From Yuukianura sp. NJ FZ-2021 (Eukaryota): DNA of 64,000 bases. Made by a program: the position numbers and the translations under genes. The notes beneath the pieces were generated by a model, which worked only from the letters and a program-made list of their open reading frames with translations, had not been told where the DNA came from and ran no database searches. Positions 1-37,912 of the stretch are shown here, piece by piece. Each line of letters opens with the position of its first letter. The stretch's first letter is position 1. The DNA is taken from contig CM102289.1 of assembly GCA_046563655.1 (NCBI GenBank), forward strand, positions 1,798,001 through 1,862,000, read 5' to 3'.

Positions 1-97
1 CCTGAAAACAATGAAGCTCATTCCCCAATTAGTTCTTCGGCCTGGAGACGGTTTACATTTGAAATTTTCAAAATTACCTTAAAAAATCAAAGTTTTT

Positions 98-6943: not shown

Positions 6944-7965
6944 CCTCTAAATTTTTTAAACAAATTGATAATTTAATCAAATGAACAATTAGAGCAATAC
7001 GAAAGTAACTTTTAGTTTAGTGAAGCATCTTTCTTTACCCGAACCAGTTAAAAGTATCTCCACCAGCCACAGTCACCACAGTATAAGTGACAACACGAAG
7101 ACGCGATGAATAATGTGGCGACTGAATTTCGCTAATTTAACATTAGGTAGCAGTTGCTGTTCTACCAAACGAATGGGTTGGAGTAAGCTTTAACGACAGT
7201 ATTAGCTCATAATGTACCCTTCGTGGTGCAAATTTGGTAGATACAGTATGTGGTATCTTATGTTGCCGTTTTAGTTGAGGTCGGGTTGAAGTGGCTACAA
7301 GTGTTGTCGCTCAGGTGTAGCCGAATATAGTAACCACAAAAGATGGCCGAAGTGGCTACTCTAGGCGGCTACAACAATTGTAGTTAATCCTTACCGTAAC
7401 AGAGAATGCGAAAAATAGGGGATGATCGCAGTTGTGAGATTCTGCCGATTCTTAGGATTAGTCCCCCGCTGCCGGTTTGTTTGTGTATGGGTTGACATAG
7501 GGCGGTATACTCTCCTTGTAACATTAGAATAGAACAGGCAGCGTTTCTAGTTGCAAAAAAATGTAAATTGAAGGGTTACAATTCGTGTAAACTAACTTAA
7601 ATAGGGGTTCACACCAAATTTTTGTGTAATCACTCTGCATACTAGGAATTATGGTTGCAATGTCGTTGGTGTCTACTTTGTGTTCACAGCATAGAAACAT
7701 CCGTCCTACTCCAACCTTTGTTTTTATCGGTTATGTGTTTGCTCGCTGAAATACCAAACGCCTGTGATTTATGTAGTACTGCTGAATTTTAAGTTTCCTT
7801 TTAATAAATGAGCAATTAAGTGCTTAAATCTGTTGTTAAGGTAGGTCGTTAATCATGGGATCAGATTATCATAATACACAAATTGTCACCTCATCTTTGA
7901 TATTCTATTCTTTGCTTTACATTCCAGAATATCGTTTACGATAAGGAGGGCTGCTGGAACTAATC

Positions 7966-10719: not shown

Positions 10720-11478
10720 TAAGCGCATTGGTCAAACACTTTACATACAAATACGGTCGTATTTAACTTGCAAAACTTTAGCTAGTACATAAAAACTATT
10801 ACAAGTTGTAAAATGTATAAATTCCTTGAAGTAAAGCGCATTCAAACCACCTCAAATTTTTAGAAATTCGTGTACTTAATGTAATTGACGTTTGCTATTA
10901 GTTGTAAAAACATTCCAATTCGTCCATTTGAATAAAAACCGAGTAATAAAAGCACGCCATAGCTGGTTATGCTCACCGTTTTCATTTTCAGTAACAAACA
11001 AAATGATCCGGGCAGAACATTTTTTTTCCTTGGTGTCGTTTTCCTTGTACTTTTTAATGGCGTTAGTTCCAAAGTGGTTGAGTCGCACTGAACTTTCTGT
11101 GGCAAGAATGCTTATAATCCTCAGCAAATTCTCAAATGGATGGACAATTTTAGAACAATGAAATGGCAACCCTTTTTTAAACTTTGTTCAAATGAACTAT
11201 TATCGGAGTTCTTCCCTTTTCCCAAATAACTGCAATTTCTTCAAACACATTTTGAATCTGTAACATTGGAGGTTCAGATAAATTTCAACACTTGAACTAA
11301 AAGGAGGTTCGTAAAGATTTCGACGTTAAAAGTAATTCCTCTTCCGTTCCACTTCAGGTAATTTTTCATCATACTTTATTTCTTTTCCTATTTTAAAAGC
11401 ACAACTTTGAAAAAAAAAACTTAAACTAAATACAGAAGTCGGCTCATTGCTATTTTGATTTTTTTCTACAGAGGTCAC

Positions 11479-12407: not shown

Positions 12408-12827
12408 GCGTGTTTTGGTGTTATGCTTACTCTTCAGTTGCATTTGGCTTACATAACTTTAGCTACATGCAAAATTAGGTTTGTACGTTTAATACGTTTA
12501 GTACGTAAAATATTCGAAGAATAACTAAATATTTTATTTTTAATAAATATTTCACCGTCTTCAAGGAAACATTAAATAAATATTTCTTTCATCTTAAAAA
12601 AAATTGTTTACTGTATTACTTAAAAAAAAAAAAAAAATTCTTTCATCTATGCTTATTACTCTAGCATTTGTGCTCATTTCTTCCAATAAATACTTCCAAC
12701 TAAAAATTTCCAAAAGGTTTGCTTGCGACAAAATTTGTGAAAGTTGGTAATTGCCTTTTTCTAAAAAAAAAAATAGACGGTAGATATTTTTGTACAATTT
12801 TTAACTTAGCTGAATGAGTTTATTATT

Positions 12828-14088: not shown

Positions 14089-14569
14089 CGTATTTCCTCG
14101 ATGTAATGTTGTCAATAACTGTGTAATAGAAATAACACCAAGAAATATAACGTTTTCAGCAACGAATATGTTCTGGAACGTAGAATACATGAGTATATAT
14201 AGTTAAAACCGCAAGAAAACGGTGTTTTGACTTTGTCAAAAATTATACAAATTTTTGTCCATTAATTACGAGAACATGCTATTCTACTCCTAATTTACTA
14301 CTAAAACATGTTTTTAGAAAATAAGGTTCTGTGTAATAATATTTCATAATAGCACTTTCTAATATGTATTTTTCTTTTAACGCGGTTGTTATTTAGGCTT
14401 ATGGAAGAAATTATATCTTGGTAGCCCATTTTTTCAAAGCTTATGCAAGAAGTAAAAGCAATTAAAAAAATGCGTGGGTTCTCTGCTAACTTTTAGTAAG
14501 TCGAAGTTCATTGAAAGTTAAAGATAGGTTTAAGTAAATTGACAACTTTTGTGAACTTGTGAAACTTTA

Positions 14570-14730
14570 TTTTTAGTTACCTAAATTGTATTCTACCAGA
14601 GTAATAATTTTTTTTAGTAAATTGTAACTTACGCGATTGCTTAACTTTTTTTTAGTAAATTGTACCCTCCGCGAGTAAGTAATTAAATTTTGCCTTAGAA
14701 ATTTGTACTCACCAGAGTAATAATTTTTTT
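14570..14730. repeat. Degenerate ~40-bp tandem repeat (about 4 copies)
   Basis: Units resembling TAGTAAATTGTA...(CCA/CGC)GAGTAA...TTTTTT recur between GR paralog 1 and ZF3. Confidence 0.5.
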
Positions 14731-15495
14731 GGAATATCGATTCGTGAAATTGCACAAGAAATGCGACAAAATATTCCCTACTGGGGAATGCAGTATTGGA
14801 AAGAACAAGAAAACAAAGTTGGTCAATGTCATCATTTTCATTTTTAGTCGAATTTTTAAGTATTTTGGGAGAAATGTTTATGCTACGAGCGATTGAGTTG
14901 CTTATAATATTCCGTAGCGTGGTTAGTTTAATTACGACACTACGTTACAATTACTACCGAATTTACTTGTCTCCAACTTCCTCTGGATGCATACTTCTTT
15001 CGTGACTTAAAACATTTGTGTTTCTCATTCTTCGAATAAATACTTTCAACTGAAAATCTTTTTTTGAAAATAATTGTTTCCCAATTGGTTCATTGTGTAT
15101 ATCCTAAAAAGAAAGGAACCCTAGCTATTTTTGTACAACAAAGCCAAGGTCGAATTTTTCTTCGAACAGAAATGCGACCAAAAAATTTATCAGTACAGTA
15201 TTCCTTTTACTGTGCTGAACGACAATACCTTTTCACAAAAATATAACTTTTCAGAGTTGAAACATTAGGGGTTTTCAATGCTCAATAATTTCCAATTATT
15301 TTGGTTAAAATTAAGTTTAAATTAAGACAAATTTGAAAACAGCCAAGACAGTTTTTGCGATTCATACAGATCTCATTCAGCATTTTAAAGAACTCTGTAC
15401 ACAAACGAACGTCCACTGTTAAGGTATTTTTTCATTATTTTAAATTTTTATTTAATTTAGGTTCACAGGTTGGATTTTTTTTTAGAGCAAATAGA

Positions 15496-16581
15496 ATGAC
15501 ACCTAAATGCAAACGAATTAGAGGTTACAAGGAGACAAAAACGGACGTTGTCGAATGTGTCCAGTGCGGGAAAAGCATCAAGGCGCAATGTCTAACTCAG
15601 CATATGAAGATTCATTCCAACATTCGACCATTTGAATGTACAACGTGTTCCAAAACGTTTCACAGGAAGTCTCATCTAACGCAGCACATACTCGTACACA
15701 GTGGCGAAAAGCCTTTTGTCTGCTCCGAATGTGGGAACGCCTACGCACGAAAGTACCAATTGTTAGTTCACAATCGTGAACACACTCAAGAATTGTTTCG
15801 ATGCAGCAATTGCCCAATGGTATTCAAGACAAAACAACATCTCAAGTCTCACATGGTATCTCATACGGGGGTCAGCGACTTCATGTGCGACTTCTGTAGA
15901 TATGCTGCTCCAAGTAGTTTGTCACTCAAACGACATTTGATTAAACATACGAAGGAAAGAGCATTCCAGTGCGACAAATGCCCACGGCGTTTTGGAATCA
16001 AATCTAACCTTGCAACTCACCGAAAAAGACATTTGAGTGAAAATAACCTCCACTGCGCATTCTGTGACTATCAAACTCCCATCAGATATCTAATGTGTTT
16101 TTTCTTTAAATTTTGAAATTTAAACTATTTATTTAATTGTTGAATTAATGGTTTATAGGAAATGGATGAACACATTAAGCGGCATGTTGGTGAAAAGATG
16201 TTCCAATGTCCGCACTGTTCTCACGAAACTGTAACAAAAGCTGATCTAACTGCTCATTTAAAAGTACACGGAGTTGGGAGAAGGACGTTTGACTGCGACA
16301 TTTGTCGCAAACAATTCTCTTCTACGACTACTCTTGTGAACCACAAACTACTCCACAGTAAACAGGGGAAACAATGTCAATTATGCCATAAGCGTTATAC
16401 AAATGTGCATGATCTGAATAAGCATATGAAGAAGCATCATATCACTGGTAGTGCACCTAGAAATAGCATACTGAACAGTGTAAAGTCCACAACCTCACTA
16501 GTGAACCGCCAAAGGTCATGCATAGAGACGAGTATGAAAACCAGGGAACTCCGAGTTTGCTTGACTCGAATTGATAAGTAA
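15496..16581 (+). pseudogene. C2H2 zinc-finger paralog ZF3 with a destroyed splice donor (possible pseudogene or truncated isoform)
   Basis: Homologous exons 15496-16089 and 16159-16581. The donor that reads GTAATG in ZF2 and ZF5 reads CTAATG at 16090, and the unspliced frame stops at 16116. Confidence 0.65.
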
Positions 16582-17391
16582 TCTATTATAATTCAAGCGT
16601 ATTATATGCTTCCTCTCAGTTGTATGTATTTATCATACATAACTTTAGTTATATGAAAATCTCGTTACATCTCGTAAAGTGGTGGTTTGTTGCACTAATG
16701 TAAGTGTAAGTTTTATGTTTTCAGAAATTGATGTTTTTTTTAATGTAAATTGACCTTTGCGATAGTTATAAAAGCATTTGAATCGGTCCGTCTGCGTAAA
16801 AAGCAAGGAATAAGCAGAAATGGATTTGCCGAAACGACTACGCTGCAGTTGAAGAATTTCAATTTTATTAAAAAATAAAATCAGAGCAGAAAATTCTTTT
16901 ACGTGGGTATGTTTTTACATCTAAATTCTCATCGCGTAGTTTGTTACAAAATTATTGAATCGCGTTGCACATTGCACTTTTTCTCGGCAGAATGTGTGCT
17001 GCTGCTGCGTACGTATAATGTGCAGGAAATTCTCAAAAAAAAGGACAATTTTAGAACAATGAAACAGAAAATTTTTAAAACCTTTTTTAAAAACTTTGTT
17101 CAAATGAACTTATTATTAGTGTGTTTCGACCCACCAAAATAAGTCAACGCAAACTTCTTCAACAGAGAATTTGGTTGAAGTGGGAACATTGCAGGTTCAC
17201 ATAAATTTCAAAAATAGAACAACTTAAGCTAAGTTTCCGACTTTAAAAAACAAATTTCAAGTCCGTTTTTTTCAAAACAGAGCGAAGGAACATCTAAGTT
17301 TGCTGTAAGTTGATAAGTTTTGGTAAATTCTTATTTGCAATAACGCAATAGTACTTTATTTTTTTCATTTTTAGAATAGGTAGTTGGGATA

Positions 17392-18456
17392 ATGGCAACC
17401 AAATGCCAGCAGGGTCAAAGTGCCCAATTCAGCAGTAAAAACGTCAAAACGGAAAAACTTTCTCGACATCAAAACGTCAGCGTTCGACCATTCGAATGCA
17501 CAACTTGTTCCAAAACTTTTCGATTTCCATGCGATTTGAGGCAGCACATACGTGTACATACCGGGGAAAAACCATTCGTCTGCTCCGAATGCGGAAACGC
17601 CTATAGGCTGAAGGCGCAACTAAATTCTCATAGTCGCTACCACACTAAAGAGTTGTTTGGATGCAGCGAATGTCCAAAAGTATTCAACACTAAAACATCA
17701 CTCAAGATTCACTTTGTTACGCACACTGGAGTAAGTGACTTTATTTGCACTATTTGTGAATATGCTGCTTCAACTGCTTGGGGACTCAAACTTCATTTGG
17801 TCACACATACGAAGGAGAGAAGTTTCCAGTGCCACATATGCCACAAGCGTTTTAGATTCAAAGCAAACCTCACATCTCATACAAAACTACATTTGAATAA
17901 AAATATGCTCCAGTGTGCATTTTGTGACTACCAAGCTCACATGACACGAGTAAGCTTTTGTTTAGTTCTTAAATCCAGAATAATTAATTCGCGTAATTAC
18001 TAATTTAATGATTTATGATAACGATAGGAAATGGAGATTCATATTAGGCGACATGTTGGTGAGAAGCCGTTTCAATGTCCGCACTGTCCTTACGCCGCTG
18101 CAGGAAGTAGCGTGCTAAATCTTCATTTAAAACAACACGCATGCGGGAATAGGACGTTTGACTGCGATGATTGTCCCAAACAATTGATTCCTAAGCGTGC
18201 TCTTGTAAAGCACAAACGAGTTCACAGTGGAGACAAGGAGCATGAATGTCAACTCCGCCAAAATCGATACACAAATTCACAAATGCTGTATAAGCATGTC
18301 AACAAGTATCACCCAACTGGTGCTGCCACAAATTATGACAACTTGAAATCCGCAATCGATGAAGAAACTGCACTAAGAAACTGTCAAAAGTCATGCGCAA
18401 ATACAGGTACCGAAACCCGGGAACTTCGAATTTGCTTGACTCGAATTGATGATTAG
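17392..18456 (+). CDS. Tandem C2H2 zinc-finger protein ZF4 (~328 aa)
   Basis: Exons 17392-17949 and 18028-18456. The first and last fingers are degenerate (missing Cys). It ends TRELRICLTRIDD. Confidence 0.88.
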
Positions 18457-19269
18457 AGGTAAAGCGTGTTGTGCTTGCTCAATTTGCACAATTAACATAA
18501 CTGTGGCTTTTACGAAACCTACTGTAACTTGTCAAAAAATGTACGTTTGTTGCAAGGTTATAATTATATTTCATATTTGCAACGATTGAAATGTTTTATA
18601 TAATTGACGTTAATTATGGGGGTAAAAGCTTTTAAATTATTGGTCCATTTGAATGAAAAGCGAAAAATAAACATCACTATTTATTTTACTATTTATTTTT
18701 AGTGGAGTTTTAGAAAAAGGTTTGTTTAGAAAGATTTTTTTTTTGTTTTCGAAAAACAATTTTCATCGCACGGTTTTTGAAACCTTGGACATTTTTAGCA
18801 GTTAGTCATTTTTTTTTCAATAAATCCTTCCAACTCAAAATTTTCAAAAACGTTGTTTTAGCATAATGCTTTAAAATTAGTTTTAACAAATGTCTTGCTC
18901 GAAAAAAAGGACGGTAACTATTTTTGTACAACGAAACAAAAGTCCCTTTTTCCTTAAAAAAAAGTAAAAAGCAGTGTGACCAACAAAAAATTTATCAGTA
19001 GTAGTACACATAAAACTAAACTCACACAAACAGACAAAATTCAAACCGGCTGAGAACTTTCGGGGTTTTTACAAATAGTTCTGATTTGGCTTTTTAAAAG
19101 AACACTACAGGGGTGTTCACTTTTAAGGTAATATTTTTTGTATTACTTAAGGCCTTAGCTTTAAAATTTTTTAAGACTGAATTAAAAAGTCGGCGTGTTA
19201 TTCCTTGAATTTTCTTTTTTTAGACAAAGTGGAATAACACATAAATCCAAGCGACCTGGTCACCTGGTC

Positions 19270-20089
19270 ATGCAAAAGGAAGCGGATTTCGTGGAATGCG
19301 TTCAATGCGGGAAAAGCGTCAAAGCGCGAACTCTACCCCGACATATGAAGATTCATTCTAACATTCGACCATTTGAATGTACAACATGCTCCAAAACGTT
19401 TTACAGGAAGAGTCATCTAACACAGCACATGCGCTTGCATACTGGCGAAAAGCCTTTCGTCTGCTCCAAATGCGGGAAGGCCTACGCACAAAAGCAGCAT
19501 CTATTAACTCATAATCGCGAACACACTCAAGAATTCCTTCGATGCAGCCACTGCCCAGTGCCCAATGGTATTCAAAACAAAACAAAATCTCCGGCATCAC
19601 TTGATAACCCATACGGGCGTAAGTGACTTCATGTGCAGTTTTTGTCAATATGCTGCTCAAAGTGCTGGGTCACTCGAAGTTCATTTGGTGACACATACGA
19701 AGGAGAAAGCTTTCCAGTGTGACAAATGCTCAAAGCGTTTTGGATCCAAGTCAAACCTTACATATCACAGAAAACGACATCTGAGTGAAAATATGCTCCA
19801 GTGTGGATTTTGTGACTACCAAACACACGTCAGACATGTAATGTTGTGTTTTTTATATTTAAATTGACAATAATTATATAATTGATGAATTAATGATTTA
19901 TAGGAAATGGAACAACACATTAGACGACATGTAGGTGAGAAGTCGTTTCAATGTCCGCATTGTCCTCAAGCAACTGTAACAAAATGGGAGCTAAATTGTC
20001 ATTTGAAAAGACACGGAGTCGAGAGAAGGACGTCCCTAGGACTGGAAACCCGGGAACTTCGAATTTGCTTGGCTCGAATTGATGAGTAA
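19270..20089 (+). pseudogene. C2H2 zinc-finger paralog ZF5, frameshifted
   Basis: A 7-bp tandem duplication (TGCCCAG TGCCCAA, 19552-19565) shifts the frame in the fourth finger, giving a stop at 19626. The rest of the gene, including the intron at 19838-19903 and the C-terminal motif, is intact in the other frame. Confidence 0.8.
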
Positions 20090-21182: not shown

Positions 21183-24100
21183 ATGAGCATGAAAACGCTG
21201 CTGCTGGTTTTTGTTACTTTTAAACATCAAACTGAAATTTTTGGCAGTGAAGTCAATGATGTCCACATAGTTCCAGAACTTGGTACTTTGGTCCACGCCT
21301 TTCCAGATTGCTACAACATTGTTCCGATGTCACCGTTTCTAAAAGTGTCAATCGACGACCAAATTTTGGATCCTATTGTCTTGACAACAAAACCTCTTCA
21401 TATCAGCTCACTACTTAATTGTATCGTTCACTTTGTCGTTTTTTCGGATCATGACATGCTTGTACTCCAAAATCGGCGGTATCCACTGGGGTTCATCAAT
21501 TTGAAATGTCCGTTTAGTCATAGCAACTTTTCTAAATTTTGTGATTTAGTGCCAGAGCAACTTGTACTTTTAATTTCTGGTACTCAAAAAAACTGGATTG
21601 ACGTAAATCTTCGGATCACACTCACCGGCACTAGTTCTAATCACAATGTACGAGAATTTCACTATTTTTTGGTCCATTTGGAGTCAAAAACGAACATTGA
21701 ACATCGAATGCCAGGATCTTTTGCATTGTTCAAACTCATTTTTAGCTGTAAACTATATGCACCTACATTTTTTGGTGTTGGACACTTTCATCAAAATTTG
21801 ACACAATTGAAAAACTTGACAAAATTGAGAAATTTGATTGATTTTGTCATTATAAAGCAACCGTTTGGTTATGCTCATGTGATAAATCATGACAATTCGC
21901 ATCGAAAAAACTTTTGTTTTGAAAACTTTATCAAGCCGTACCACAAACGAAATGCGGATTTTGCTGGTCCACTTGCTAATCCAATCAAACCGTCCAATGA
22001 CATTCCCTTGTACGTACACATTTTGTACACCATGGTTCAAGATCTCAACTACACTCATCCTGATAGGAAAGAGAGTTGGACCAAACTAGGGACAGACAGT
22101 CATAGATTAACAATGACAACGTCAATTTGGATATTCTTTGTCAAAAATGCAAAAGTTGGAGAGTATGACTACTCTATGGTCACTCTAGGTCAAGTCAGTT
22201 ACAACTTTTTAACATGTGACTCCATCATTGACGAAAACGTTAGTTTTGCATTCTACAGTATTCCGTTTGACCTAGAATCGTGGTGCACAACTCTGTTTAC
22301 CCTGATTGTAATGTCTACTGTCAGCATGTTTGCGTTCTGGACTACACTAAGAATTAGTGCACATGAAATTACTATTGCACGGGTCAACACTGTTGTCATA
22401 TTTCACCGAACATTGGAAGCAAATTCTTCTACACTCCTGGGAGTCGGCATGAACGATGACATGATCAATTTGGTCAAGTCATTGCCTTCGTTTCAAACTT
22501 TTTTGAGAATAATTCTTGGACTTTGGTGCCTACTTACCGTTGTTCTCACTAATGGATACTTGGGTCTCATCACAACATACTCAACTGCCCCATTTGACAA
22601 AGTTGGAACTTGGCAACATGGGACAGATATGCACTCTTTTTACTTTTTAGTTTCTCGACACATTTTTGATGGAATCATGACATCAATATTCATGACGGAT
22701 TATATAAATCAGGGAACTTCCGTTGACATGAATTACTATCGAGAATTAATGCAAGTCTACGGTGGCCGTAGCCTCTGTCACGGAAACATAACTCATCCTT
22801 TTGTCATTGGGTAGATCGCAATTTGCTGATTGTAGATCGGATTGTGACGGTAGAGCATTGTTTTCTTTATTCAATGGTACGAATGACAGTTTGTGGTTTA
22901 GGGAGCCCGGAGGTAGCACGCACGGTAACTTTGATTCACTGCAGAGCTTGAGATTAAATTACAAGAAGCGAAGGTATGATCCGTTTAGCGCCTTATAGTC
23001 TTAAAACAATAGGTTTAACGTCTTAAGTTTCGAATTTCGAAATTTCATAAGTTCGCAGTCGCGTATAACTCGGTGCTTCTTGGTAAATACACTCAAAGAT
23101 TAAATGAAATGTAAACTAATAGAAACTTAATTGTAATTAGCTGAATCAAAACATACGCAGTACTATTCTTATACAGTCTTGTACTGTCTTCCGGAAGATT
23201 CTTCAAATGAAGCCGTCTTCCGGCTTCATTCTTCCGACTTCCGGAAGTTTTGAAGACGGAAGCCCGGAAGGCAAAATATTCTTTGGAAGCCGGAGGGTGG
23301 AAGACCAGTAGACAAAATATTCTTTAGAAGCCGGAGGCCGGAAGCTTGTAAGACAAAATATCCTCCGGAAGCCGGAAGACTGCAATACAAAACATCCTCT
23401 GGAAGCCTTGGAAGACCAAACATTTTCTGGAAGCCGGAGGTCGGAAGCCGTGAAGACAAGAGAATCTTTGGAAGCCGGAAGTCGGAAGACTGGAAGCCGA
23501 ATCAGCTGTTTTTCTTCGGAATCCGGAAGACAGTACAAGACTGAGCTAGAAATTTTAATCTTCAAATTTGGCGCCAAATTTTGTTTTAACCCAAATTCGC
23601 CTTTTTCATCTGTACAAGTACAACACAAACACAGTTAAAAGTTCTAAACATGTTGCAGTATATAAAAGTTTACTTTACTGTAGCTTTGTATTTAGTCTAT
23701 AACTACCGTCTTCTCACAATCTTACAATCAGGGAATCGCGATCTACCTATAATGTGCTATTAGCAAATGTAAAGAAGAATGGGCAACAAACTCAAAAATA
23801 TTTCAAAGGAATACACCAAATGCTCTCATACATTTACTGTTGGACGAAAATATGGGTGCCTACGAGATCTATGATTTTCTGCCAAAGTTCAAATATGGGT
23901 TAATCACAGCGCCTGCGGATGGATTCCGAGTTGACGAAGTAGTGAAGGATGTGGCAACATGTGACAGGAACGGATATATTGCCGAAAATCGTACGCTGGA
24001 TAAATTTGGACAATACTTGGAAGAAATGAGTGCGGGAAAAACTGTTGGAAAGAAAGGGAAAGATCATTTGTTCGAGTCTACGGAGCGTTACGTTTTGCTA

Positions 24101-24499
24101 GATTTTCAGAAGAACTTGCTTTACAGGAGAATGCAACGGATGATGACGTCTGGACTTTACAATTTCTGGAAAAAGTGGCAAGTTTATGAAAAGGAAGACA
24201 GAGAATGGCGGGAAAGAATTCGACGTTTGAATGTTACGAGCTCAAAAGGTCCAATTCCGCTTTCCTTAAATTCCAAATTGGTAACCGGGTTTGCAATTTG
24301 TGCGATGACGGCAATGACAACTATTGTTTTTGGATTTGAATTGTTGAAAACGTGCGGACAGATGATAAAGAATAGAAAAAATTCGAATTTTAATGCAGTT
24401 CAAATCAACGTTCGACCAACCTCTGGCGATGACAGTGTAGACGACGAAAAAGAGGATTTCGTAGGAAATGTTGAAGCTTGCGAGGAACTTGAGGATTAA
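21183..24499 (+). CDS. Divergent ionotropic-receptor-like (iGluR/IR superfamily) membrane protein (~833 aa) with a frame discontinuity at ~22800
   Basis: It has a signal-peptide-like N-terminus, YNFLTCD, FYSIPFDxxxW before M1, LWCLLTVVLTNGYLG (M3-like), TSGLYNFW and a C-terminal TM. The proposed exons 21183-22810, 22836-22973 and 23764-24499 require either a 25-nt intron or a 1-nt indel. Confidence 0.7.
23174..23543. mobile_element. Non-autonomous TIR element (MITE) within the IR-like intron
   Basis: It has a perfect 22-bp TIR CAGTCTTGTACTGTCTTCCGGA (23174-23195, inverse 23522-23543) and many internal GGAAG(C/A)C subterminal repeats. No clear TSD. Confidence 0.88.
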
Positions 24500-25518
24500 C
24501 ACTTTGCTTTAATTTCAAAATTTAAGATTTACATGCAGTTGCGAAGGGAATTTACATAATTAAAAGGCTGCAAAAATTTTCAATGTACTTGCATGTTTTA
24601 TGTGAAATGGATTGCTACAAAATCATTTTTGCAATGGTGGAATACATACTAAAGTGCACGATGCATGCTTTTTTTCTACTAAGACACTTGTAGAGGAAAA
24701 CCGTAGTGATGTTATATCTGGTCCGTCTATAACTTGACGACTTTACGTCAAATTTAAGTATTTCTTAATTAATTAATAGGTTATAATAAGGTCAAATTCA
24801 CCTAATTCTTGGACATCTTAATGCCAAGAGTTCAAAACGGGGGTAAAAAATTTAATTAAATGTATTTTTTTAAATTATTACACCTATTGTCTTCAAAATT
24901 TAAAAACACGTCTTGGCGCCGGTCAGGCATCCGGCGGATCCGAGCATGACAACTATTCGTCACCCCCATTTAGTTGCCCACAGGCCTCACCCCCATAGCA
25001 CTCATGGGCACAGTTGTCAAATTGTAAGGCAAGTGCAATGACAAATGCAAATTGCAAATGCCCTAAGGCAAGGAAGCGCGCGGAACGACATTCCTTTGTT
25101 TCGAAACAAAGGAATGGGTATAAGGTTTAGAAATATGATATATATGTATATGCTATATACATATATATCACGTAACATTGCAGAAAATACATCTCACGCT
25201 AAATGCACTTCTCGAAAGTATCTTTGTAAGTTTTGCGATTTTTCCAAGCAGTCCTTACTTGGCTTTCTTAAAACTACTACTACACGTAGGTAAAACATCC
25301 ACCTTCAAGGTATGTTTTAGCTCTTGTAGGTTAAAATTATAACTTAACATTTACAAAATTCATAAATTAAAGCAACTGATACACGCATAATAGAAATAAG
25401 CCCTCCGATAAGACTGCTTTAATCGAAACAAAAATTAAACTTACAATTACTTGGAATACACATAATACAAAACTCAAAGTATCCCATTGACATAAGTAGT
25501 AATTAATGTCGTATTTAT

Positions 25519-28402
25519 TTATAGATACCAGTTGAAAAATTTTCGCCTCCGATTTTCTTGAGACTTGAGGTCGACAACTATTGCTTGTGGACTACGCTTT
25601 AGCAAATGTGTCACTTCGTACAGAAAAATCAAAATAGTTAAAAGAATGCAGTACATCAGAATGTAAAAGCCAGTGGCAATGTTTCCCGCCAAATTAATTT
25701 TTTTCGGTAATCCATCCAACCATGCAGAATTCAAATTTTGTTTCAAAATCTCATCCATGATTTCCGGATTGTGAATCTTCCACCACTTCACCCAGAGATC
25801 GTAGATACCAGAGTGGAGCAAAATAGCAAATGTGTTGTACAAGTAATCAGACTTGGTTGGAAATACGTAAGTATCAGAGAACAGAGTTGCATTGCCTTTG
25901 CGAAAGAAAACTCTCTTAATTCCAGAATTCCCGTGATTCGTTTCATCTCTGCGCATCATATTTTCGTAGTTAGCTACAAACATGTTCAAATTCTCTTCTG
26001 ATCCTAAAAATCCCAATCTTTCACACTGGCTGAGGACTTGGGCCATTCGAAACAGGGTGTGGTTGACATGCCATTTGTTCGTAGGTTCCAGTAACACTTC
26101 GCCTATCAGGAAAGATGGCGAAAAATTTGGAAATCTACTTTGATCTGACAGTTTCTTCCATGCAGACCTGCTGGAACTGTTATTCGCCAAATAGTACATC
26201 CATTCACCACATCTGTGGCGAAAGCCATAAGAAGAAAATTGTGATGCGTTTACGCATTCTCCGCTCCTCTTCATGACCTCAACCAACTCATCCCGAGTGT
26301 TATTTGGCATCGTCCCAATGTGGTCGAAAGGTACGCATCCTACGGTAGTGTCGCAGTCACAGAACGTAGATTGGAGTAGTTCAGGATATTTGATGACTTC
26401 CATTGCATAGTTGTTCATGGCTCTTATGCGACTGCCAATTCCATAACTTCCCTCTCCGTCGGCGTACACAAAGAAGTTTACCAGCTGAGGGAAAGTGTGA
26501 TACGTTTGGGTGATGGGTGGAGCAGTGGTTAGATAGGAAACTAAAACATTCGGTTGCAGTGAACCAGACTACTACCCAATGTTAACACTGTAACACTTAT
26601 AACCACATGCAATTAAAACATGCCCACAAGTGGTAAGTTTTAAATATTGGGTTCTGCGAAGTGACGGAAACGATGTTCCCAGTTTTGGTCACTTTTCAAA
26701 ATTTTGAAAATTGAAAAGCAATGTTGCTAGAGCAACCAATTGAAATCTACAAGAGGTTGTACCTACAAGGTAAGAGGGCAGTGGTTTCAAAGGGTGTAGT
26801 TTGGTAGACTGCAACCTAGTATTCCTTTGTATGCATTCGTGAGGACTACAGTAATGAGGAGCCAGAGGCTGAATGCAAATAGTCTCTTTTTGGTTCCTTG
26901 GCGTTCCGGCATTTCCTGACATTGGTCAATTAGGACTGACAGAATCACAACGACTGCTCTGGGAATGTTTTTCAAGTACTGAATGATTTGGCTACAATTG
27001 GTAGCGAAGTGGACATAGGTGACGCTGGACACAAAAAAGATAAGAATAACCAAAATTCCTGCGAGTATTGTCCAGAAGTAGATGTCAAATGGGGCTATGT
27101 AAAATTCGTAGTCGAGTATATCTTTGGTTCCATCGCAAGTTAAAAAGTTGAAGTCAATTGAGCCGAGAACAAAGAGCTTTATGGAGAAGGTAAGTTTAAA
27201 ATTGTCAACACCGAATAGACCGTGGTGGACACCATACCTAGCGATGGATGCCATAATTTGTTGATAAGTGGGCAATTGTTTGTCCGCTTTAGCAGCCTCG
27301 CTTGAATCGTATATTTCCAATCTCTCCACGAGATTCAAATCCATCCACTGCTCAAATTGCAAACCAAGTTTTGACTGTTTGAACGGGCTGCAAAATGAGA
27401 AAAAACGCATTAACATCATGCTAAGAAAACAGAGAGAGAGACAAACAAACGAAAAAATAAGAAAAAACATCGTTTTGTATTTCAAAAATTTCAGAGCTTA
27501 TTGTGCGTTATTAAATTAGATGAAGTGTCGTACGATTTCTGTTGAAGTTCTGGTATCAAAGTGAGATCAACCTTGATAAAATTTTTGGGCGTCAAATATT
27601 TGCTGCGTTCCATACCAACATACACGGTTCTTGCCGCCAAAGTTCCGTTCCGAACGAGTTGATCGAGAACTTCACGCAGTTTCAATTGGTTTTTCTCCGT
27701 TAAATTTCGTCTTAGTTCGTAGTACCTTACGTGATGAACTACACGCGTAATATATGTACTTACGGGCGATACTACAACTACTTTGGATGGCACTTTCCTT
27801 ATCAATCGCTCGTCATACGCAGGTCCCACCGCTAGCACCACTTCAGTTCCATAACATTCCACTTTCGATATTGCCGTGGCTTGGTAAGAAAATAAAAACC
27901 AGCTGAAGTGATGCATGTCTGACACATACGTATTTGAAAATGGTTCGTTTTGAATAATGTTAACATAGATGTTTAGTTCATATGTGTTAAGATGCTTCCT
28001 CTCATTTGACGGGAAACAAGTAGCAGGGTCGTCTGTATTTTTTCCAAAACCTTTCATAATCAAACGAGGGAAGACAACGAAAAATGAGAAGCAGGTCCTG
28101 TGACTTCCAAGATTTTTCCTGTCAAGTTGTGGTCTAAATACTGACATTGCTGGCGAAATTAATTCCTCATTTTGTCCAAAGCAAAACCGTTTTCGTCCGA
28201 TTTGAACGTAGTAGATTTTAGTGGGAACTTCAAATTCCTGCACAATTTCTGGTTGTGTGTTGTTTGGCGCAAGAATAAAATTGTCACAATCAGGAAATGC
28301 ATTGATTAGGATATTTATGTTCAAAATTTTGGTATCACAATTACAAAATGAAAAGTGGAAAAACAAAATCCCACAAAGACGAAAACCAGTTAATACGTTC
28401 AT
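25519..28402 (-). CDS. Divergent ionotropic-receptor-like membrane protein (~820 aa, 3 exons)
   Basis: Exons 28402-27534, 27387-26816 and 26540-25519 join in frame. It has a signal peptide, FNFLTCD, FYIAPFDIYFW, LWLLITVVLTNAYKGIL, HSGIYDLW and a C-terminal TM, and shares AFPDC with the + strand paralog. Confidence 0.78.
26552..26816. mobile_element. Degenerate TIR element forming intron 2 of the - strand IR gene (introner-like)
   Basis: Imperfect inverted repeats GGTTGCAGTGAACCAGACTACTACCC (26552-26577) and the reverse complement of 26792-26816, GGTTGCAGTCTACCAAACTAC-ACCC, match at 22 of 26 positions. The splice donor lies in the TIR terminus. Confidence 0.65.
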
Positions 28403-29014
28403 TTTCTGAAAAATAAATTACAAAAAAAGTTCAAGATTGAACTTCAAATGCTGACGACGTGACGTTGGCTGATTAAATGATGAGTTCCACGCCCAATTTC
28501 GATCTGGCACACAGAAAAATTTTTTAGTTGAAATGGTGATCATCTTAAGTCGATCGCATGTCGCAAAGAAAATATTCGCGTGTTCCAATAAAATAAATTA
28601 GCTTTCTCTACTTTACAATCACCACAAAAAACTTGAAGAAATTTTCCTTTATCCTTCACCTCGTAAAAATACGGAGTTAAATTAAAAATTATGTAGCAAA
28701 TGTTAGGTTGCCTGTTTGCAAACTGTTTACCGGACACAAAGAATATTAGAACCACCAATATTTCAGTGAGTATTGTCAAAAAGTCGAAGTTAGAAAAGAA
28801 TCCGTAATTGAGGATATCCTACATTCCATTCCACGTTAAAAAGTAGATTTAAGTGATTAACTCAAGAGTGATGCGTTGACTAACCTAACCTCCACCGTCA
28901 GAGATAAAATCACACAAAGATGAATGATCTTTCATTTCATTTCCCCAAAAAATTTTGAGATGAAAATATCTCATGTGAATGTTGATGTTTCTTGTTTCAA
29001 GGAAATGGGAGCAC

Positions 29015-29765
29015 GCCATTTCAACGAATGAATTACAACGAAGTGAATTACCCCGAATGAATTTCCCCGAAACCAATCACAACGAAAGTTGAATTACCCC
29101 GAAGCGAATTACAACGAAAGTTCAATTACAACGAAAGTCCAATTGCAACGAAAGTCCAATTACAACGAAAGTCAAATTACAACGAAAGTTGAATCACAAC
29201 GAAAGTTACTTCCAGGGGTAAATATATAATGTTTCTGAAAAAAAATGAGGAATGAAATATCGTGACCTAGAAGTCCGCCTTCTCGACATTGTTCAAAATT
29301 TTGGAAATATGCCTGGCTCGGACTACCTTTTAGGAATCGCACACAATATAGGTTTCTATGTTTAGATTTTGTTTAGGTTATTCAGATTGTGTTGTTTAGA
29401 ATTTTTAGTAGTTTTTGGGTTTTATAGGCTAAGATTTAGTTAATTCTTCGACAATCAACTCAATTGTTTTTTTTACAAGATCATCTAAATTGTTTTTTTT
29501 ACAAGATCATTGAATCCTTTTTCAAAATAAATCATCATTGTTGCTTATAACTAAGGAAAACCCCATTTCAGAACAATTCAGAATTTTTTTCGTTGTAATT
29601 GGACTTTCGTTGTAATTTGACTTTCGTTGTAATTGGACTTTCGTTGTAGTTGGACTTTCGTTGTAATTGGACTTTCGTTGTAATTGGACTTTCGTTGTAA
29701 TTCGCTTCGGGGTAATTCAACTTTCGTTGTAATTGGTTTCGGAGAAATTCATTCGTTGAAATGGC
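29015..29765. mobile_element. Foldback-like MITE with arms of inverted ~17-bp tandem repeats
   Basis: It has a 20-bp TIR GCCATTTCAACGAATGAATT (29015-29034, inverse 29746-29765). The left arm repeats AATTACAACGAAAGTCC (~29030-29207) and the right arm repeats its reverse complement (~29588-29735). Confidence 0.85.
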
Positions 29766-29774
29766 ATGGAACCA

Positions 29775-30098
29775 TAGATGCGGCATTACCGTTAATCTTC
29801 GGTAATTTGGGCATATACTGAAGCATGCGAAATTCAGCTTTTTCGTATTTTTTGTCAAAATAATCTCACTCCGTATTATAGGTAAAATAATGAATTTAAA
29901 TTTGATCAAACAATAAACCAAAGTGAAGAAAAAATACAGATTCAGTGTGAATTGCAATTCCTTTTCCATAAAAAAATGGGCTCCATATGCTTTACATGTA
30001 AAATTAGCATTATCGGTTAACCGGTAATAGAAGCCAACAATTACCGGTAATTAGCGATTACCGATACTAGCGAAACATTACCGGTAATAGGAACCCTA
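29775..30098. mobile_element. Degenerate MITE with ATTACCGGTAAT subterminal palindromes
   Basis: The left end TAGATGCGGCATTACCGTTAAT resembles the reverse complement of the right end, TAGGGTTCCTATTACCGGTAAT. Several ATTACCGGTAAT-like motifs occur at 30010-30088. Confidence 0.4.
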
Positions 30099-30750: not shown

Positions 30751-31722
30751 AGAGGGGCAAAAAATATGTTGTTAAAACCGGTGAAATATGTATTTAAATA
30801 TGTACTAAAAACCAGTGAAATATTTACTAAAATATTTTTTATTTCACGAAATATTGTTTATTTTCGGGTCTTAAAACACCATATTTCTCGGAAAAGTACA
30901 AAATATACGTATTTTATGGATTATGCGGGTGTACTTCGCGTGTAACACAGCTGTGGCACATTGGGAAAAAGGAACCAAAAAGGCGACAAGGTTTTACATG
31001 TGTTTAAATGGGATTTCTTGTCGCATTTTTTTCTCCTATTTCCCAACGTGTGTGGTGGCAAAATAACAGCCAACTTTTTGCGCTACACAATTTTTTTTTT
31101 CAATTTTGATCCAATTTCTTCGAAAAAGTTGAGAATTTTTAGAACACCCAAGAATCAGTGTTCATGGATGTCCACTTTTGTGACATTTCGTCCAGTGGAT
31201 AATATATTTCATCCGGTTTTGCCCGGAAGAAATGGCCAAATCAAATGGATAGAAATGGATACATCCGGATACTTCCACCTAAGTTGTTGTGGGTGGAAGA
31301 AATATTTTGTCCATCATAATATTGCCTTGACTAGGTTTTCCAACGTATGCGATTTTGTTGGGAAAAATTAAAGTTGTATAAAATATTTAAAGTGAAAAAT
31401 TGCATTTCCTGGGGTACATTTAGCGAAACGTTTAATCATTCATTTAACATTTAACATTTAACATTCGAAAATAATTCCTTTTTGGTCAAGATGTCACTTG
31501 CAGAGATCTGAGGAAAACATAACGTAAACTATATATCTCCACCCACACTCTTGGCAAAATTTGCCTAAAATGTCCAAAATTGTTAAAAATTTGCCGAAAA
31601 TGCTTCCTTTTTGGCAAATTCTACGAATATTTTCCTAAATATTTTTTATATTTTTTTTCGAGAAATATTTTTTTAAAATATAAAAGTATGTAATATGTAA
31701 GAAAATATGTTTTGCCCCTCTG
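30751..31722. mobile_element. Probable non-autonomous TIR element (~970 bp)
   Basis: AGAGGGGCAAAAAATATGTT (30751-30770) pairs with AAAATATGTTTTGCCCCTCTG (31702-31722) as an inverted repeat. There are AAATAT-rich subterminal repeats at both ends. No TSD seen. Confidence 0.55.
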
Positions 31723-32189
31723 AAATGCACACGGACAATTAGACATCTCCAATTATCTATTCTTACGAGTGACTTGCGGTCATCCCTTGAGCACTACCCT
31801 TCGTTGTTGTTTTTTTTCTTGGTAATTAAGCGGAGCAGTAGAATAATAAGCAATTACTCGAGTTACGTATTTCCCATAGATCTTGATTGGTATTTTCGCC
31901 GTAAATTTTCTGTTCTGCCATAACAACACTCTTTCTGCAAAACTTCCATCTTGAAGAAGGTGATACAATCTTCGTCAACCTTGAATAAATAATTCTGTAC
32001 CAATGCGTATGCCAGTTCATTAGTTCAGGTGACTTACTTGTTCACTACTGTGCATGACTGGGTTTATTCTGTTTCTGGGTAGCTTGAGGTACAAATCAAA
32101 GAACTGTAAAAAAAAACTACGTTATACTATTAGTATATTATATTTTTACTCTTAGCCTCACTTTTTCAAAAACGTTCCCCAAAATTGAA

Positions 32190-34019
32190 ATGATTATACA
32201 AAAGCTTGTTCTCAACTGTTTGGCATTCCCTCCATTTCTATTGCTTTTAGTGATTGCATTCCCATTTCTAGCCATTCTTTGGTTACACCGCATCATCGTC
32301 ACTTTAATTTTGAAACCTTTGTTCCGGAGAGACTTGAAAAAGGCCATTTCTGGCATTGAATTGATCTACTCATTTGAAAAGTATTGGAATGGAACGCGAG
32401 AGGCAATTTCAATGGTGCATGTCGTTCAAGGGACGCTGGATGTAGAAAAAGTGAAACAACGGCTGACTGACGTGATTTTGTACAAAAGACTCAGCACTCC
32501 AGAAGAAATTTTAAACTACGACCGTCTCACGACGCTTCACCCGTTAAAGTGGATGGGTTTCGTTTTTTGGAAGGTCAGTTCTGAAAAATTCGATTTAGAG
32601 AAGCATGTTTGTGTGGTCGACACAAACACAACTACGGAAAATTTCAGCGTTAATAGAACACTGGTCGAATGGCTCAGAAGTCCATTTCCGAAGGATCGTC
32701 CTGTATGGAGTGCAATAATTATTCCAGGTATTTAGTGAAAGTCAATGTTTAAATCTATTAGTGAAAGTTTAGTGAAATCTCTTATATTTGTATACTATAC
32801 ATGTATATTTTGATACTTCAAATTTGTTGTTCAGGTTACAGAAATGAGCAGGATGAGCAGAAGTCACTTGTTGCGTTCCGAGTTCATCACGTTGTGTCCG
32901 ACGGTTACTCAATGGTAGACTTTATCGGACGACTCTACGACGAACCTCACAAGAACAACTCACCTACGCGGACTGTCAACATATACACTGACATCATTCA
33001 GCAACTATTTTGGTCACCACTTACCGTGTTCAACCTGGTAAACACTTACGCCGTCAAAACCGTTGCTGCAAATCTCCCCACCTCATTCAAGAATTGGTTA
33101 CGAAACAACACAACTTCAACTGGACGGCAAAAAATGACTTTGATCACAACACATTTTGACCTCAACGAACTCAAAGCTCTCCGAAAAAGTTTAAGCAAAA
33201 ACTTTCAAAAACAAGTTACATTTGCTACGCTGATTTGGTTCCTATTGGCTGGAGCTCTTCGACGGTTGTACCGCAGTGGCCACTTTGATGCGGCTAAAGC
33301 AAAAATGATTACACGCAAAGGACAGCTCAAATTTAATGTCGGCTACGGTACGCCAAGGCGCTCACCTCATCCACTTCGCTCATTTTGCAACCATTGGTGA
33401 GGCCAATAAATATTTTACATGACACTACATTACAAATATGCCTAATTAATATATCTTTTTTAATAAATTTTTAAATTTTGTTTACGTATTTATGAATAGG
33501 GCTATGAACAACTACAGCGTGCCGTTTGGACATGAAACAAGCCAGGAACGACTAAGGCAGATGATCCAAACTTATTCTTGGCGCGAAACTTCAAAAATTG
33601 GTGACATGGATACCTGGTTACACGCAGTTGTAACAAACGTCCTGCCAAATTCCTTCCTTTCCATGATTATCGAGGCAGCAACGCCTAGCGTCATTGGACT
33701 TACAAATCTTCCTGGATCACAAACTTTAGTTCACTTGTGTGGTGCTAAAGTGGAGGAAATTTATGAACTGACTGGACTACTCTACAAACGATACAGTAAA
33801 ATTACTTAAGTAATTACAAAATTTCTAACCAATTTATGCTAAAGTAATTTTCGTATGCTCAAAGGTTTTACACTTGGATGCTACTCATACAACGATCGGC
33901 TTGGAGTGACGCTTTTATCTGATGCCGAAATCTTGAATGACAAAGCATCTGAGAAGTTGCTCAAAACCTACTTTCGTGAAGAAATTAACGAACTCACTGC
34001 GAAGTACTTAAATCCTTGA
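32190..34019 (+). CDS. Wax ester synthase/diacylglycerol acyltransferase (WS/DGAT, WSD1-like O-acyltransferase; ~516 aa)
   Basis: Exons 32190-32727, 32835-33396, 33500-33795 and 33865-34019 join in frame. It has an N-terminal TM, FDLEKHV, PFPKDRPVW, the catalytic HHxxxDG (RVHHVVSDG), and C-terminal TNLPG and YSYND motifs. Confidence 0.85.
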
Positions 34020-34378: not shown

Positions 34379-35651
34379 TTAAAATGCTAAGAGGAGATTT
34401 ATAATTGGTGAAATAACTACTTCAGACCAAACGAACAAAATGAATTCTCTTGTTTCAAGGGACGCAAAACCTCCAATACACATGCGCAATGGAGTCATGC
34501 TCTTCCAAAATTTTGATTCATATTTTGAATAGGAGTTTCTTGCTTGGTGACGAGCCATTTCAATTAAACTTTTAGACAAAATGTTGTGATCAGTTGAAAT
34601 GGACAAAAGGAGGGCTGCCCATACTATACCAACCACATCGGCAGTAGCAATAACAAAAAGAAGAACAGAAAAGTAGCCACTTGCACGAATTACGAAAAAC
34701 GAGTAAATGACAATACCCGTGAAACCATTAATTAGATATAGAGTAATTGTAGTACCTCCAAAAGCTACCTCAAATGCTTTACCAATTACTTTAACTTCCA
34801 AATACTCCGATGTTTTCCTACGAGGTCCAAGATAATTTCCTTCATTCTCCCGGCGCAGTTTACTATAAAAAAAAATAAAAAAAAATACTTTAAATTTATT
34901 TTTAAAAAATACAAAAATGGTTCGATTATTAAAACTAAAAGCAGTAACCACAGTACAAATTTTACTCCGCCTACCCGACCATTCGGAGATCCCTCAGAAG
35001 TTGACGAGTTGTGAACAAATATAAAAAGATCCAGTGAAACACCGTAACAAGATTAACCAATGCATGACCCATTCCAACTGCAATACCAGAAAATGCAATA
35101 AGTTGTAGAATTGACTCTGGAATGCTGAATTGTGAAGCAATAAGTGCCAGTATATTGTGAATTGTGGTGAACAACCCAGGTAATGCCCATGATGCTGCGT
35201 ATACGAATGGCAGGAAAAGAAGCGGATACATTATTGATGCAAAACAGAAGAGGAAACATAGCATTTCAAAAGATCGCGGCAATTTTCTGGATAGACAGAA
35301 CTTGGTATCGAGAGTAATGTTTGTGACCTTGATGCAGCGTTGTCGTGTAGTCGGAATAAGTAGAATCCATTGTGACATATGCTGCATATTAAATACACTG
35401 TTTAGACCAAAAGCAATTATTTTTTCAAATTTTGTCGTATCACCAATAGCTGTTTCGTAGTACCAACATGCTATAAATGTCCCAACAAAAACTGTAGAAA
35501 ATACTCCAAACACCTTGTACACTGTGTTGCTTTTAGTGTAAACAATAGTATCAGGCAGTCCATGTCCAAAATGATATGTTACAGGAACGTAGTGCATAAA
35601 TGTTGTCCAAGTATACATTAACCTTACCCATAAATTCGTTCGATCCTTCAT
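34379..35651 (-). CDS. Gustatory-receptor-like multi-pass chemoreceptor, paralog 2 (~386 aa)
   Basis: Exons 35651-34975 and 34862-34379 join in frame. It has the same intron position as 12828-14088 and high similarity to it (DRTNLWVRLMYTW, GDTTKFEK, FWKSMTPLR). Confidence 0.72.
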
Positions 35652-36380
35652 AATGCCTTGACTTTTATGAAATTTTGAATAAAAACTTGTTTAATAGCAA
35701 AACAAAAAAAAAACTACGACTTAGGGCTACTACGATTTGACTAGAATGGTTTTATTTAGCGATTGCTAGGTTGTGTGTTCAACGCATGCAAATCGTACTA
35801 AAGCTGCAGCAAGTAATTTATAGGAGAAACGCCAAATCAAACAAAGTGATTTAATTGATTGATAAAGACGCTTTTGTTTTTCAAGTCTGTCCAAACATTT
35901 CAAAATATTGATAATATCTTTGCTAACTATTGCAAAATTGAAGGTCATAAGAAATTGAGAATGTGTTTCTAAATGTCAAGGTTTAAGAACTTGTTGAAAA
36001 TTTTGCTTATATGCGTGTTCTTTTCATATGCGTCTCATAATGCCTCGACTTTTAAGTAATTTTGAGTAAATAATTTACAATTTAACATTTCACGGTTTTA
36101 CTTCAGCAATAAATGTGTTCTGTTTGTTTTTAGGATTAAATAAGTATTTTTCTTTAGCAGGTTAGACAATTACTCTATCTTTAAATAAATCGCAAAGAAA
36201 AAAAATCAACCAATTGGAGTTATTGCCTAACACGACAATTTCTTTGTTTATCAGCGTTGCTTTTCTCAATCATGTTTGTGGAAACATTTCAAAAAACTGT
36301 AGTTTCTTTGCTAACTGTTGCTAAATCGAAGGTAATGGGTATTTGAGAATGTTCTCAGAAAAATTCAAGCTTTAATAACT
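35649..36380. repeat. Diverged ~390-bp tandem duplication of the GR paralog 2 upstream region
   Basis: CATAATGCCTTGACTTTT at 35649 corresponds to CATAATGCCTCGACTTTT at 36036. TCTTTGCTAACT...GAAGGT...TTGAGAATG is present in both copies. Confidence 0.65.
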
Positions 36381-36914
36381 TTGTTTTTGTAAACTTTAAA
36401 TATGCCGTAACTGCCCCGAAATCAAACCGTAAGAAATAGTTTAAACACATTGCAATTGTAAGTCAGATTTGAAGCTGCTGCCTGTTAGGTTCAATTACGT
36501 TAAGAAAACAATGGAGGGTCACAATTTTAGAACAATGGAATTTGGATGGACCCAGCTTTTTTTAGATTTTGAGCAAAACTATGATGAAGCTACAGAAATT
36601 TTTTCGTGTGCTAAGACAAACCAAACTATTAAAAGACTAAAAACTATTCAAGTTTGCTCATTTGAAGACAAGACACGAAGCTGACAGGAAACTTGCGTAA
36701 TTTTTGTTTTGGTTTGCAAATTTTTATTTCCAAATTCCAATTATTGAATTGCACAGCAAAATCTATACAAGTATCATTTCAGGAAGCAGGTATCTCGCTA
36801 ACGTATACTTCTCAGCTTTTCCATTCTAATATTTAAATTTTACAAGACTTTAAAGAGCCAATTTGCATACAAAAAAGAAACTTATTTTTCTCTGCAATTT
36901 AGACAAATTGAAGA

Positions 36915-37912
36915 TTGAGTCGCAAAATTCAACAATTTCAAGGTCAATTACGCACTCCATCAACAACGGAAGTGGTCGCTTGCACTGAATGTGGCAAAAA
37001 CGTCAAAATGCAAAGTCTTCCTCAGCACATGCGCATACACACTGGGGAAAACCCATACGTTTGCTCCGAATGCGGAAAAGCCTTTGGACGAAAGGACCAT
37101 CTTCGAAGGCACAGTCGTGGACATTCTCAAGCGTTTTTACGCTGCCACGACTGCCCAAAAGTGTTCAAAAACAAACAGAATCTCAAGAGTCATATTGTAA
37201 CCCACACAGGAGTAAGTGATTTCGTGTGCAATTTCTGTCAATACGCTGCCCAAAGTTCCACAGCACTGGAGAGACACATTGCAATCCATACCAACGAGAG
37301 ACGTTTCCAGTGCGAATCATGCGCAAAGTCTTTCAAGTGTCAAATAAGTCTCACACAACACATGAAATTGCATGGAAAGAATAAGCTCAACTGCAAATTT
37401 TGTGATTATCAAACGCAGAACACACAAGTATGTTCATTTTTTTAGTTTCGAAAATAAGCGTCATGATGTAATATTTTAATTTTGTTTAGAGAATGGACAC
37501 TCATGCCAGGCGACATGCTGATTCAAAGAAGATTAGTCGATGTCCGCACTGTCCTTATGCAACTGCTACCTACGATGAGCTAAAAACTCACGTGAAATTG
37601 CATACACTTCAAAAGATGAGGACGTATGACTGCGACATTTGCTTCAAAAAACTTAGTTCTAAACATAACTTAATTTACCATAAAAGAATCCACAGCGGAC
37701 AATGGGAACAGCATGGATGTCAGTTCTGCAACAAACAATTCACACATCCCAATACGCTGAAAAGGCATGTGAAGAAGCAACATGCCACATGTAGTTTCAG
37801 TAGAAGTATCTCGACGCTCGATTCCACGAACATGCCAGGACATCTGAACTGCGCAGAAGCAGTTCTGGGAATTAGACAAGTCCGTGTTTGCTTAACACGT
37901 ATTGATGAGTAA
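36915..37912 (+). CDS. Tandem C2H2 zinc-finger protein ZF6 (start codon uncertain)
   Basis: Exon 1 ends at 37427 and exon 2 spans 37490-37912, with the same intron position as the cluster genes. It ends IRQVRVCLTRIDE. The first in-frame ATG is at 37008, inside finger 1, and there is an in-frame TGA at 36909. Confidence 0.78.

Follow-up and report, generated by a model that had tools for sequence, protein, structure and literature searches.

The 64 kb window analysed here (64,000 nucleotides (nt) of contig CM102289.1, positions 1,798,001 to 1,862,000, from Yuukianura sp. NJ FZ-2021) carries two neighbouring, divergent genes that resemble ionotropic receptors (IRs), gene A on the plus strand and gene B on the minus strand. 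In this study, we considered the origin of their introns, two of which (2/3 across the two genes) are bounded by inverted repeats. Gene B was read as three exons. Exon 1 (28402..27534) starts with the ATG at 28402, as in the list of open reading frames (ORFs), and ends at the donor TC|GTACGA, where the predicted junction restores an S-P-F motif seen in homologues. Intron 1 (27533..27388, 146 nt) is ordinary and without a terminal inverted repeat. Exon 2 (27387..26816) covers an M1-pore-M3-like region with a weak match to Pfam Lig_chan and ends with ...NAYKGIL plus one G. It is followed by intron 2 (26815..26541), which is 275 nt long, has GT..AG boundaries and lies in phase 1, and by exon 3 (26540..25519), which is collinear with homologues and includes the stop codon at 25519-25521. 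When the three exons are joined, the frame of the predicted spliced translation is open over 820 codons. Gene A consists of exon 1 (21189..22810, 541 codons), one intron (22811..23763, 953 nt, GT..AG, phase 2) and exon 2 (23764..24499), which runs to the stop codon, and its predicted spliced frame is open over 786 codons.

The second intron of gene B is framed over nearly its whole length by an inverted repeat. The 5' arm (26791..26816, minus strand) begins at 26816, the base with which exon 2 ends, and its positions 2-3 are the donor GT. Because the first base of the repeat is the last base of the exon, there is no room in gene B for an older donor. The 3' arm (26552..26577, minus strand) ends with ...CAACC at 26552, and a spacer of 11 nt (26541..26551, minus strand) leads from there to the acceptor AG; the first-pass annotation of this DNA had taken this spacer for a decayed copy of a target-site duplication (TSD) plus G. 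In a blastn-short comparison, the arms matched at 22 of 26 positions with one gap, and a repeat search returned them as 26545-26572 and 26796-26823 (28 nt, 79% complementary). A 21-nt terminal pattern was found in the window at these two arm sites only, against 0.02 sites expected. For terminal complementarity, the first 40 nt of a segment were compared with its last 40 nt, and the best complementary match gave the score. Intron 2 scored 14; among segments of 275 nt drawn at random from the window, 0 of 3000 attained this value, and 3 of 3857 did so under other exclusions. Intron 1, which looks ordinary and has a strong pyrimidine tract, has no inverted pairs and scored 7, as did or exceeded 847 of 3000 random segments. 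The RNA of intron 2 is predicted to fold with its arms paired (-92.1 kcal/mol, z = -6.49). Given the terminal scores, the repeat statistics and the RNA fold, the inverted-repeat framing of intron 2 is real and beyond chance. Three earlier claims held: the position and letters of the intron 26815-26541 inside NAYKGIL|VSYLTTAP, the imperfect inverted repeats of ~26 bp that bound it, and the identity of the repeat terminus with the 5' splice site.

The intron of gene A is built in the same way with an inverted repeat of its own. Its 5' arm (22810..22834) begins GGTAGATCGC, the first base again being the last base of the exon and GT again standing at positions 2-3, which here too leaves no place for an earlier donor. 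The acceptor AG (23762-23763) lies 16 nt past the 3' arm (23723..23747). The two arms are 25 nt long and 88% complementary (22/25), and the terminal score of 17 was attained by none of 3000 random segments. The predicted junction HPFVIG|KCKEEW is in frame and keeps a G-x-C motif common to the homologues. Since this second case lies next door, the intron of gene B is more than a single oddity. The element in gene B measures 265 nt and that in gene A 938 nt; there is no long ORF inside either, and neither matched any Rfam entry at E <=1. The gene A element is composite, its interior containing both an inverted repeat with perfect 22-nt arms (23174-23195 / 23522-23543) and a tract of tandem repeats (23266-23542).

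Several further observations concern gene B intron 2 and its surroundings. The read evidence used here consists of DNA contigs only, none of which joins across intron 2. The interior of the intron is structurally variable at 26719-26773: 26719-26772 is missing from a minor contig of run X2, and a contig from a related organism (run X4), 99% identical over 26773-26929, carries a further 247 nt without likeness to any part of 24800-29000, both contigs breaking at 26773. None of the nine listed intron variants falls in the arms, which is not significant (P ~0.2, an estimate). A direct repeat (26522-26537 / 26778-26793) was weighed as a possible trace of a tandem duplication that gave rise to the intron and dropped, because its copies do not line up with the splice sites; the 9-mer that they share is expected by chance within 551 nt, by our estimate. 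In exon 1, ~45 nt at 28245-28290 show loose ends on both sides in all four runs (2-3 contigs each), and this stretch appears to be shared with other loci.

Gene A and gene B are 27% identical to each other (tblastn), and their assignment to a named family is loose. The best scores against Pfam PF00060 Lig_chan were 13.3 bits for gene B exon 2 (E 0.075) and 10.2 bits for gene A (E 0.69), both below the cut-off of 30.8. A HMMER search with gene A gave 52 relatives at E 1e-3 or better. All 20 of the relatives that were looked up were single unnamed ORFs on JGI/IMG metagenome contigs of 2-19 kb, and one of 20 relatives scanned matched Lig_chan (E 1.8e-4). When a profile of 27 relatives and gene A was compared with the PDB, 19 of 24 weak matches (E 0.04-1) were ionotropic glutamate receptors, with the matching regions in M1-M3 and M4. 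The nearest Atlas clusters were arthropod Lig_chan or 'ionotropic receptor' sets (0.84-0.91), which serve as leads only. Word-based homologue searches gave no match with gene B exon 2 among sequences of near length or with exon 3 among longer ones, and the AlphaFold model of gene A was too poor for use (mean predicted local distance difference test score 47.6). Judged from these comparisons, 'IR-like' seems a reasonable label for genes A and B rather than a statement of membership. A third receptor-like fragment lies on the minus strand at 28687-28842; it is 49% identical to residues 371-425 of gene B, the rest of the gene is absent, and it is probably a piece of a pseudogene.

The relatives show that the site of gene B intron 2 is usually uninterrupted. 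Gene A has NGYLGLITTYSTAP at this site within one 556-codon open frame, its exon 1 running on without a break. The family consensus at the site is ..LVNAYKGIVTSxLTAP.., and gene B spliced across intron 2 would read NAYKGIL|VSYLTTAP, which fits the consensus with zero indels and agrees with the earlier claim of exact codon restoration. A single alignment crossed the site (gene B residues 475-486) in 50 of the 52 relatives, a count to be read with the caveat that intron-bearing relatives would be split in metagenome ORFs and harder to find. Of the other two, one gave no alignment and one stopped at the junction. IMG gene calls do not splice, as far as is known, and the proteins fill most of their short contigs; for these reasons the relatives are taken to be uninterrupted ORFs. 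On these alignments, gene B intron 2 is clearly not general to the receptor family. The site of the gene A intron is likewise continuous in its nearest relative, P0122, and a single alignment crossed it in 16 of the 52. Compared with the relatives, all three introns of genes A and B look lineage-specific.

The same position was also met in a second gene. In run X3, two contigs are ~80% identical to the final 60 nt of gene B exon 2, and they match nothing else of the gene at >=80%. Beyond the exon match, they continue into sequence with a stop after six codons, and the first 21 nt of this sequence agree with the gene B arm at 15 of 21 positions in register (chance 1.1e-4). By this likeness, the contigs belong to a divergent paralogue, less than 80% identical elsewhere, in which a homologous intron starts at the same position. 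The insertion in gene B thus predates the gene duplication and is neither private to gene B nor recent. The contrast drawn in the first-pass annotation between gene B and its uninterrupted neighbour stands for gene A; 50 relatives are likewise continuous at the site, and this one divergent paralogue is not.

On balance, we lean towards the reading that insertions of elements with terminal inverted repeats (TIRs) became introns in genes A and B. In this reading, small non-coding elements with TIRs beginning GGT would have inserted into the uninterrupted coding sequence of two divergent IR-like genes. The GGT at each end of the element would place a donor G|GT exactly at the boundary of the insertion, and because GGT stands at both ends, a donor would be available in either orientation. 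The acceptor would be the AG past the far arm, at a distance of 11 nt in gene B and of 16 nt in gene A, supplied by flanking or duplicated target sequence. Splicing would then remove the element and keep the frame, and in gene B it would also keep the exact spacing of the pore-gate motif. Since the divergent paralogue shares the insertion and the 820-codon frame is still open, we argue that the insertion in gene B has been tolerated, which would mean that it is spliced. What we infer beyond the geometry, the statistics and the intronless relatives is transposition as the origin, a role for the target duplication and splicing itself. For the introner-like TIR origin proposed in the first-pass annotation, this means that a TIR-element-derived intron is a reasonable description, and that the family label 'Introner' finds no further copy in the window to stand on.

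A number of results weigh against this reading. No second copy of either element was present within the window, and the depth of read contigs over gene B intron 2 was at most ~3-5x that of its flanks. By sequence, the elements of gene A and gene B do not form one family, because their arms have only GGT in common. The decayed 8-bp TSD suggested earlier was not borne out: the flanks are as described, and the candidate in gene B (26541-26551 vs 26817-26824) matches at 5/8 positions, which has a 3.5% chance at one length when nine lengths were tried. The best candidates were 4/8 in gene A and 2/8, counted as none, in a third inverted pair described below, all within chance. The donors GTTGCA (gene B) and GTAGAT (gene A) fit poorly to the usual donor consensus, GTRAGT. 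The predicted pairing of the arms puts the donor of gene B inside a stem, and a stem over the donor usually hinders recognition rather than helping it. The 23 listed exonic variants of gene B, a biased subset with 187 further entries outside it, comprise 17 that change a residue and 6 that do not, which looks neutral. With regard to the TSD, a 2-nt insertion allowed in the gene B flanks brings GAAT..TA(G) to both sides. It can be argued from fit that an 8-bp duplication is the only simple way to reconcile 11 intronic nt past the arm with the exact family spacing, and decay after an old insertion could hide such a duplication.

Signs of a dispersed family were sought in the window. The 9-mer GGTTG[CG]AGT has two sites on each strand, which together make up two inverted pairs; not one such pair arose in 300 first-order shuffles. 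The pair outside gene B, the third inverted pair considered here, spans 7176..7716 (541 nt), has the terminal 9-mer GGTTGGAGT as in the gene B element and has arms of ~10-12 nt. It is non-coding, lies upstream of the coding region of a chondroitin synthase and has an interior unlike that of the gene B element; its RNA is predicted to fold with the ends paired (z = -3.4). The pentamer GGT[AT]G, a motif defined post hoc after the data had been seen, occurs 6 times in the gene B element against 0.61 expected and 8 times in 7146-7716 against 1.32 expected. As evidence for a dispersed family, we regard these observations as weak. The window holds about 25 strong inverted pairs, of which only the GGT-ended ones interrupt coding sequence. 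Strong pairs with other termini and arms of 20-37 nt lie at 34728-36188, 30751-31721, 44256-44611 and 30957-31050, with no coding interruption seen; the first of them encloses ORFs of 204 and 239 amino acids without Pfam matches.

A large family, with tens or hundreds of copies at >=80% likeness, left no sign in the read contigs, because the depth over the intron is a few-fold that of its flanks, compared with thousands at the repeat 24800-24940. The latter stretch, which separates genes A and B at their 3' ends, has a contig depth of thousands in all four runs, with tens to hundreds nearby, and is a high-copy repeat. Other candidates for copies were set aside. The 5-6 contigs at 26672-26730 were not counted as family evidence and may be unitigs, haplotypes or matches to the A/T-rich palindrome of gene B intron 2, which has weak matches elsewhere in the window too. 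A metagenome scan with the 21-nt terminal pattern gave two loci, both by chance (one has 70% G+C, the other shares 22 nt only). Within the window, 41274-41288 was rejected for want of the terminus, 42996-43910 and 7236-9207 because they reach only 17-18/24 and lie in non-coding low-complexity sequence, and an arm-like stretch at 7153-7170 at E 0.32.

The main rival, which we consider unlikely but worth weighing in full, is that the insertions are not spliced, that genes A and B are recently formed pseudogenes in a receptor family of fast turnover, each disrupted by a transposon, and that the in-frame GT..AG is fortuitous. A GGT-ended element always gives a GT, and an in-frame AG within ~20 nt would turn up about one time in three by a rough, uncomputed estimate. 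Both donors are weak, the listed variants (17 non-synonymous to 6 synonymous) look neutral, and a receptor gene fragment and a foldback element adjoin. Such families are replete with pseudogenes, according to the passage on them in PMC6938034. However, all five exons are open over 820 and 786 codons, the junction of gene B restores a conserved motif with exact spacing, and gene B intron 1 looks ordinary with its strong pyrimidine tract. The insertion of gene B is moreover common to a paralogue less than 80% identical elsewhere, and a dead gene would have gathered stops.

It is also improbable, and more so, that these are ordinary introns without any transposon, whose terminal stems formed on the spot, through small inverted duplications for instance, and persisted because their pairing draws weak splice sites together. 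The strong predicted structure of gene B intron 2 (z = -6.49) would suit such stems, as would the 15 of 21 arm positions kept by the divergent paralogue, a hint of constraint; no TSD exceeds chance, and the window has no extra copies. Against this, gene B intron 1 has no such stem, the same terminal 9-mer bounds the non-coding inverted pair at 7176-7716, and a stem that covers the donor usually hinders its use. Unrelated arms with a shared G|GT geometry suit the termini of elements better. Least probable by far is that transposons landed inside older short introns at both sites and the donor later moved onto the repeat end, for although transposons commonly sit in introns and 11-16 nt of non-repeat intron are left at the 3' side, in neither gene does any intron sequence precede the 5' arm, and the gene B site is intronless in 50/52 relatives.

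Elsewhere in the window, the ORFs are animal genes: a discoidin-domain receptor, C2H2 zinc-finger genes and a chondroitin synthase, whose exon shares 49% identity with its counterpart in the springtail Folsomia candida and <=45% with those of other arthropods. On this likeness, the host is an arthropod, with Collembola probably its closest group. The zinc-finger ORFs form a cluster on the plus strand (9663-19623 and 36912-37909). A satellite with a 59-nt unit occupies 96-3696, with 61 copies at 99% identity, a G+C content of ~21% and strong GC skew. The foldback-like element mentioned above lies just upstream of gene B at 29005-29775; its inverted arms, made up of ~17-nt subrepeats, are up to 160 nt long and 93% complementary. 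At 32088-33809 on the plus strand, there are ORFs without a Pfam match, one of which has an HHxxxDG-like motif, a motif typical of wax-ester synthase/DGAT-type acyltransferases.

The origin of new introns in animals is poorly documented, and transposon-like ends that fall on the splice donor offer a concrete, testable mechanism of gain. Should dispersed copies exist, a lineage of land arthropods would join those with transposon-driven intron gain. Should the insertions prove unspliced, the two genes are simply receptor pseudogenes broken by transposons. Returning to the reading of TIR insertions turned introns, we speculate further, and only tentatively, that GGT-ended elements might be a working Introner system in a springtail-like hexapod, spliceable in either orientation, which would drive repeated independent intron gains in the otherwise intronless IR families of early-branching hexapods. 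The terminal stem retained between old paralogues may then be needed for splicing from weak donors; we think this whole extension doubtful.

Maize Ds1 insertions are reportedly spliced from exons (Dennis et al. 1988 and Wessler 1991, both cited in PMC3260210). Like Ds1, the elements described here would each be a single non-autonomous TIR element in an exon that behaves as an intron. Unlike Ds1, for which recent mutant alleles and splicing seen in RNA are described, the insertions here are fixed, at least one of them is old, and their splicing is predicted from sequence.

Introners are by definition families of 5 to >2000 similar introns per genome and are known from Micromonas, Aureococcus, Symbiodinium and others (Gozashti et al. 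2022, PMC9860276; review PMC11282704). The mechanism cited in the first-pass annotation is in print in the relevant passages of the same two sources (PMC9860276, PMC11282704): the element carries one splice site, and the TSD or flank gives the other. As in the Introners of these passages, a short non-coding TIR element makes up nearly the whole intron here, with one splice site inside it and one outside, the coding sequence would be restored on splicing, and the position is lineage-specific. Unlike the Introners described there, the two elements have no second copy within the 64 kb window, are dissimilar to each other and lack a clear TSD. The host also differs. Introners are reported mainly in protists, algae, fungi and a few aquatic animals in the passages drawn on from PMC9860276, whereas the host here is a terrestrial-type arthropod. 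In a supplementary table of that paper, the rows of the two springtails surveyed, Folsomia candida and Orchesella cincta, consist of zeros only and are given here as bare rows, apart from the column headings (PMC9860276). The main text of a 2025 follow-up does not mention arthropod, springtail, Collembola or copepod (PMC12130899), and searches of open-access text found transposon-derived introns described neither for Collembola nor for IR genes.

Inverted repeats at intron ends are also known from other systems. In the MITE-derived (miniature inverted-repeat transposable element) non-canonical introns of Fritillaria and the non-conventional introns of euglenids, the end repeats pair, which brings the two intron ends close to each other, and a MITE origin has been proposed, as summarised in a section of PMC11282704. 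The introns of genes A and B resemble them in these terminal repeats and differ in having GT..AG boundaries, in contrast to non-canonical boundaries and unusual excision. For the receptor family itself, the closest comparison is with Campodea augens and Blattella germanica, in which intronless divergent ionotropic receptor lineages with independent intron gains have been described (PMC6938034). Like those receptors, as that passage portrays them, the family studied here is mostly intronless and fast-expanding, with one or two introns gained at new positions in some lineages. The passage names no mechanism for these gains (PMC6938034), whereas here two of the three gained introns have transposon-like ends.

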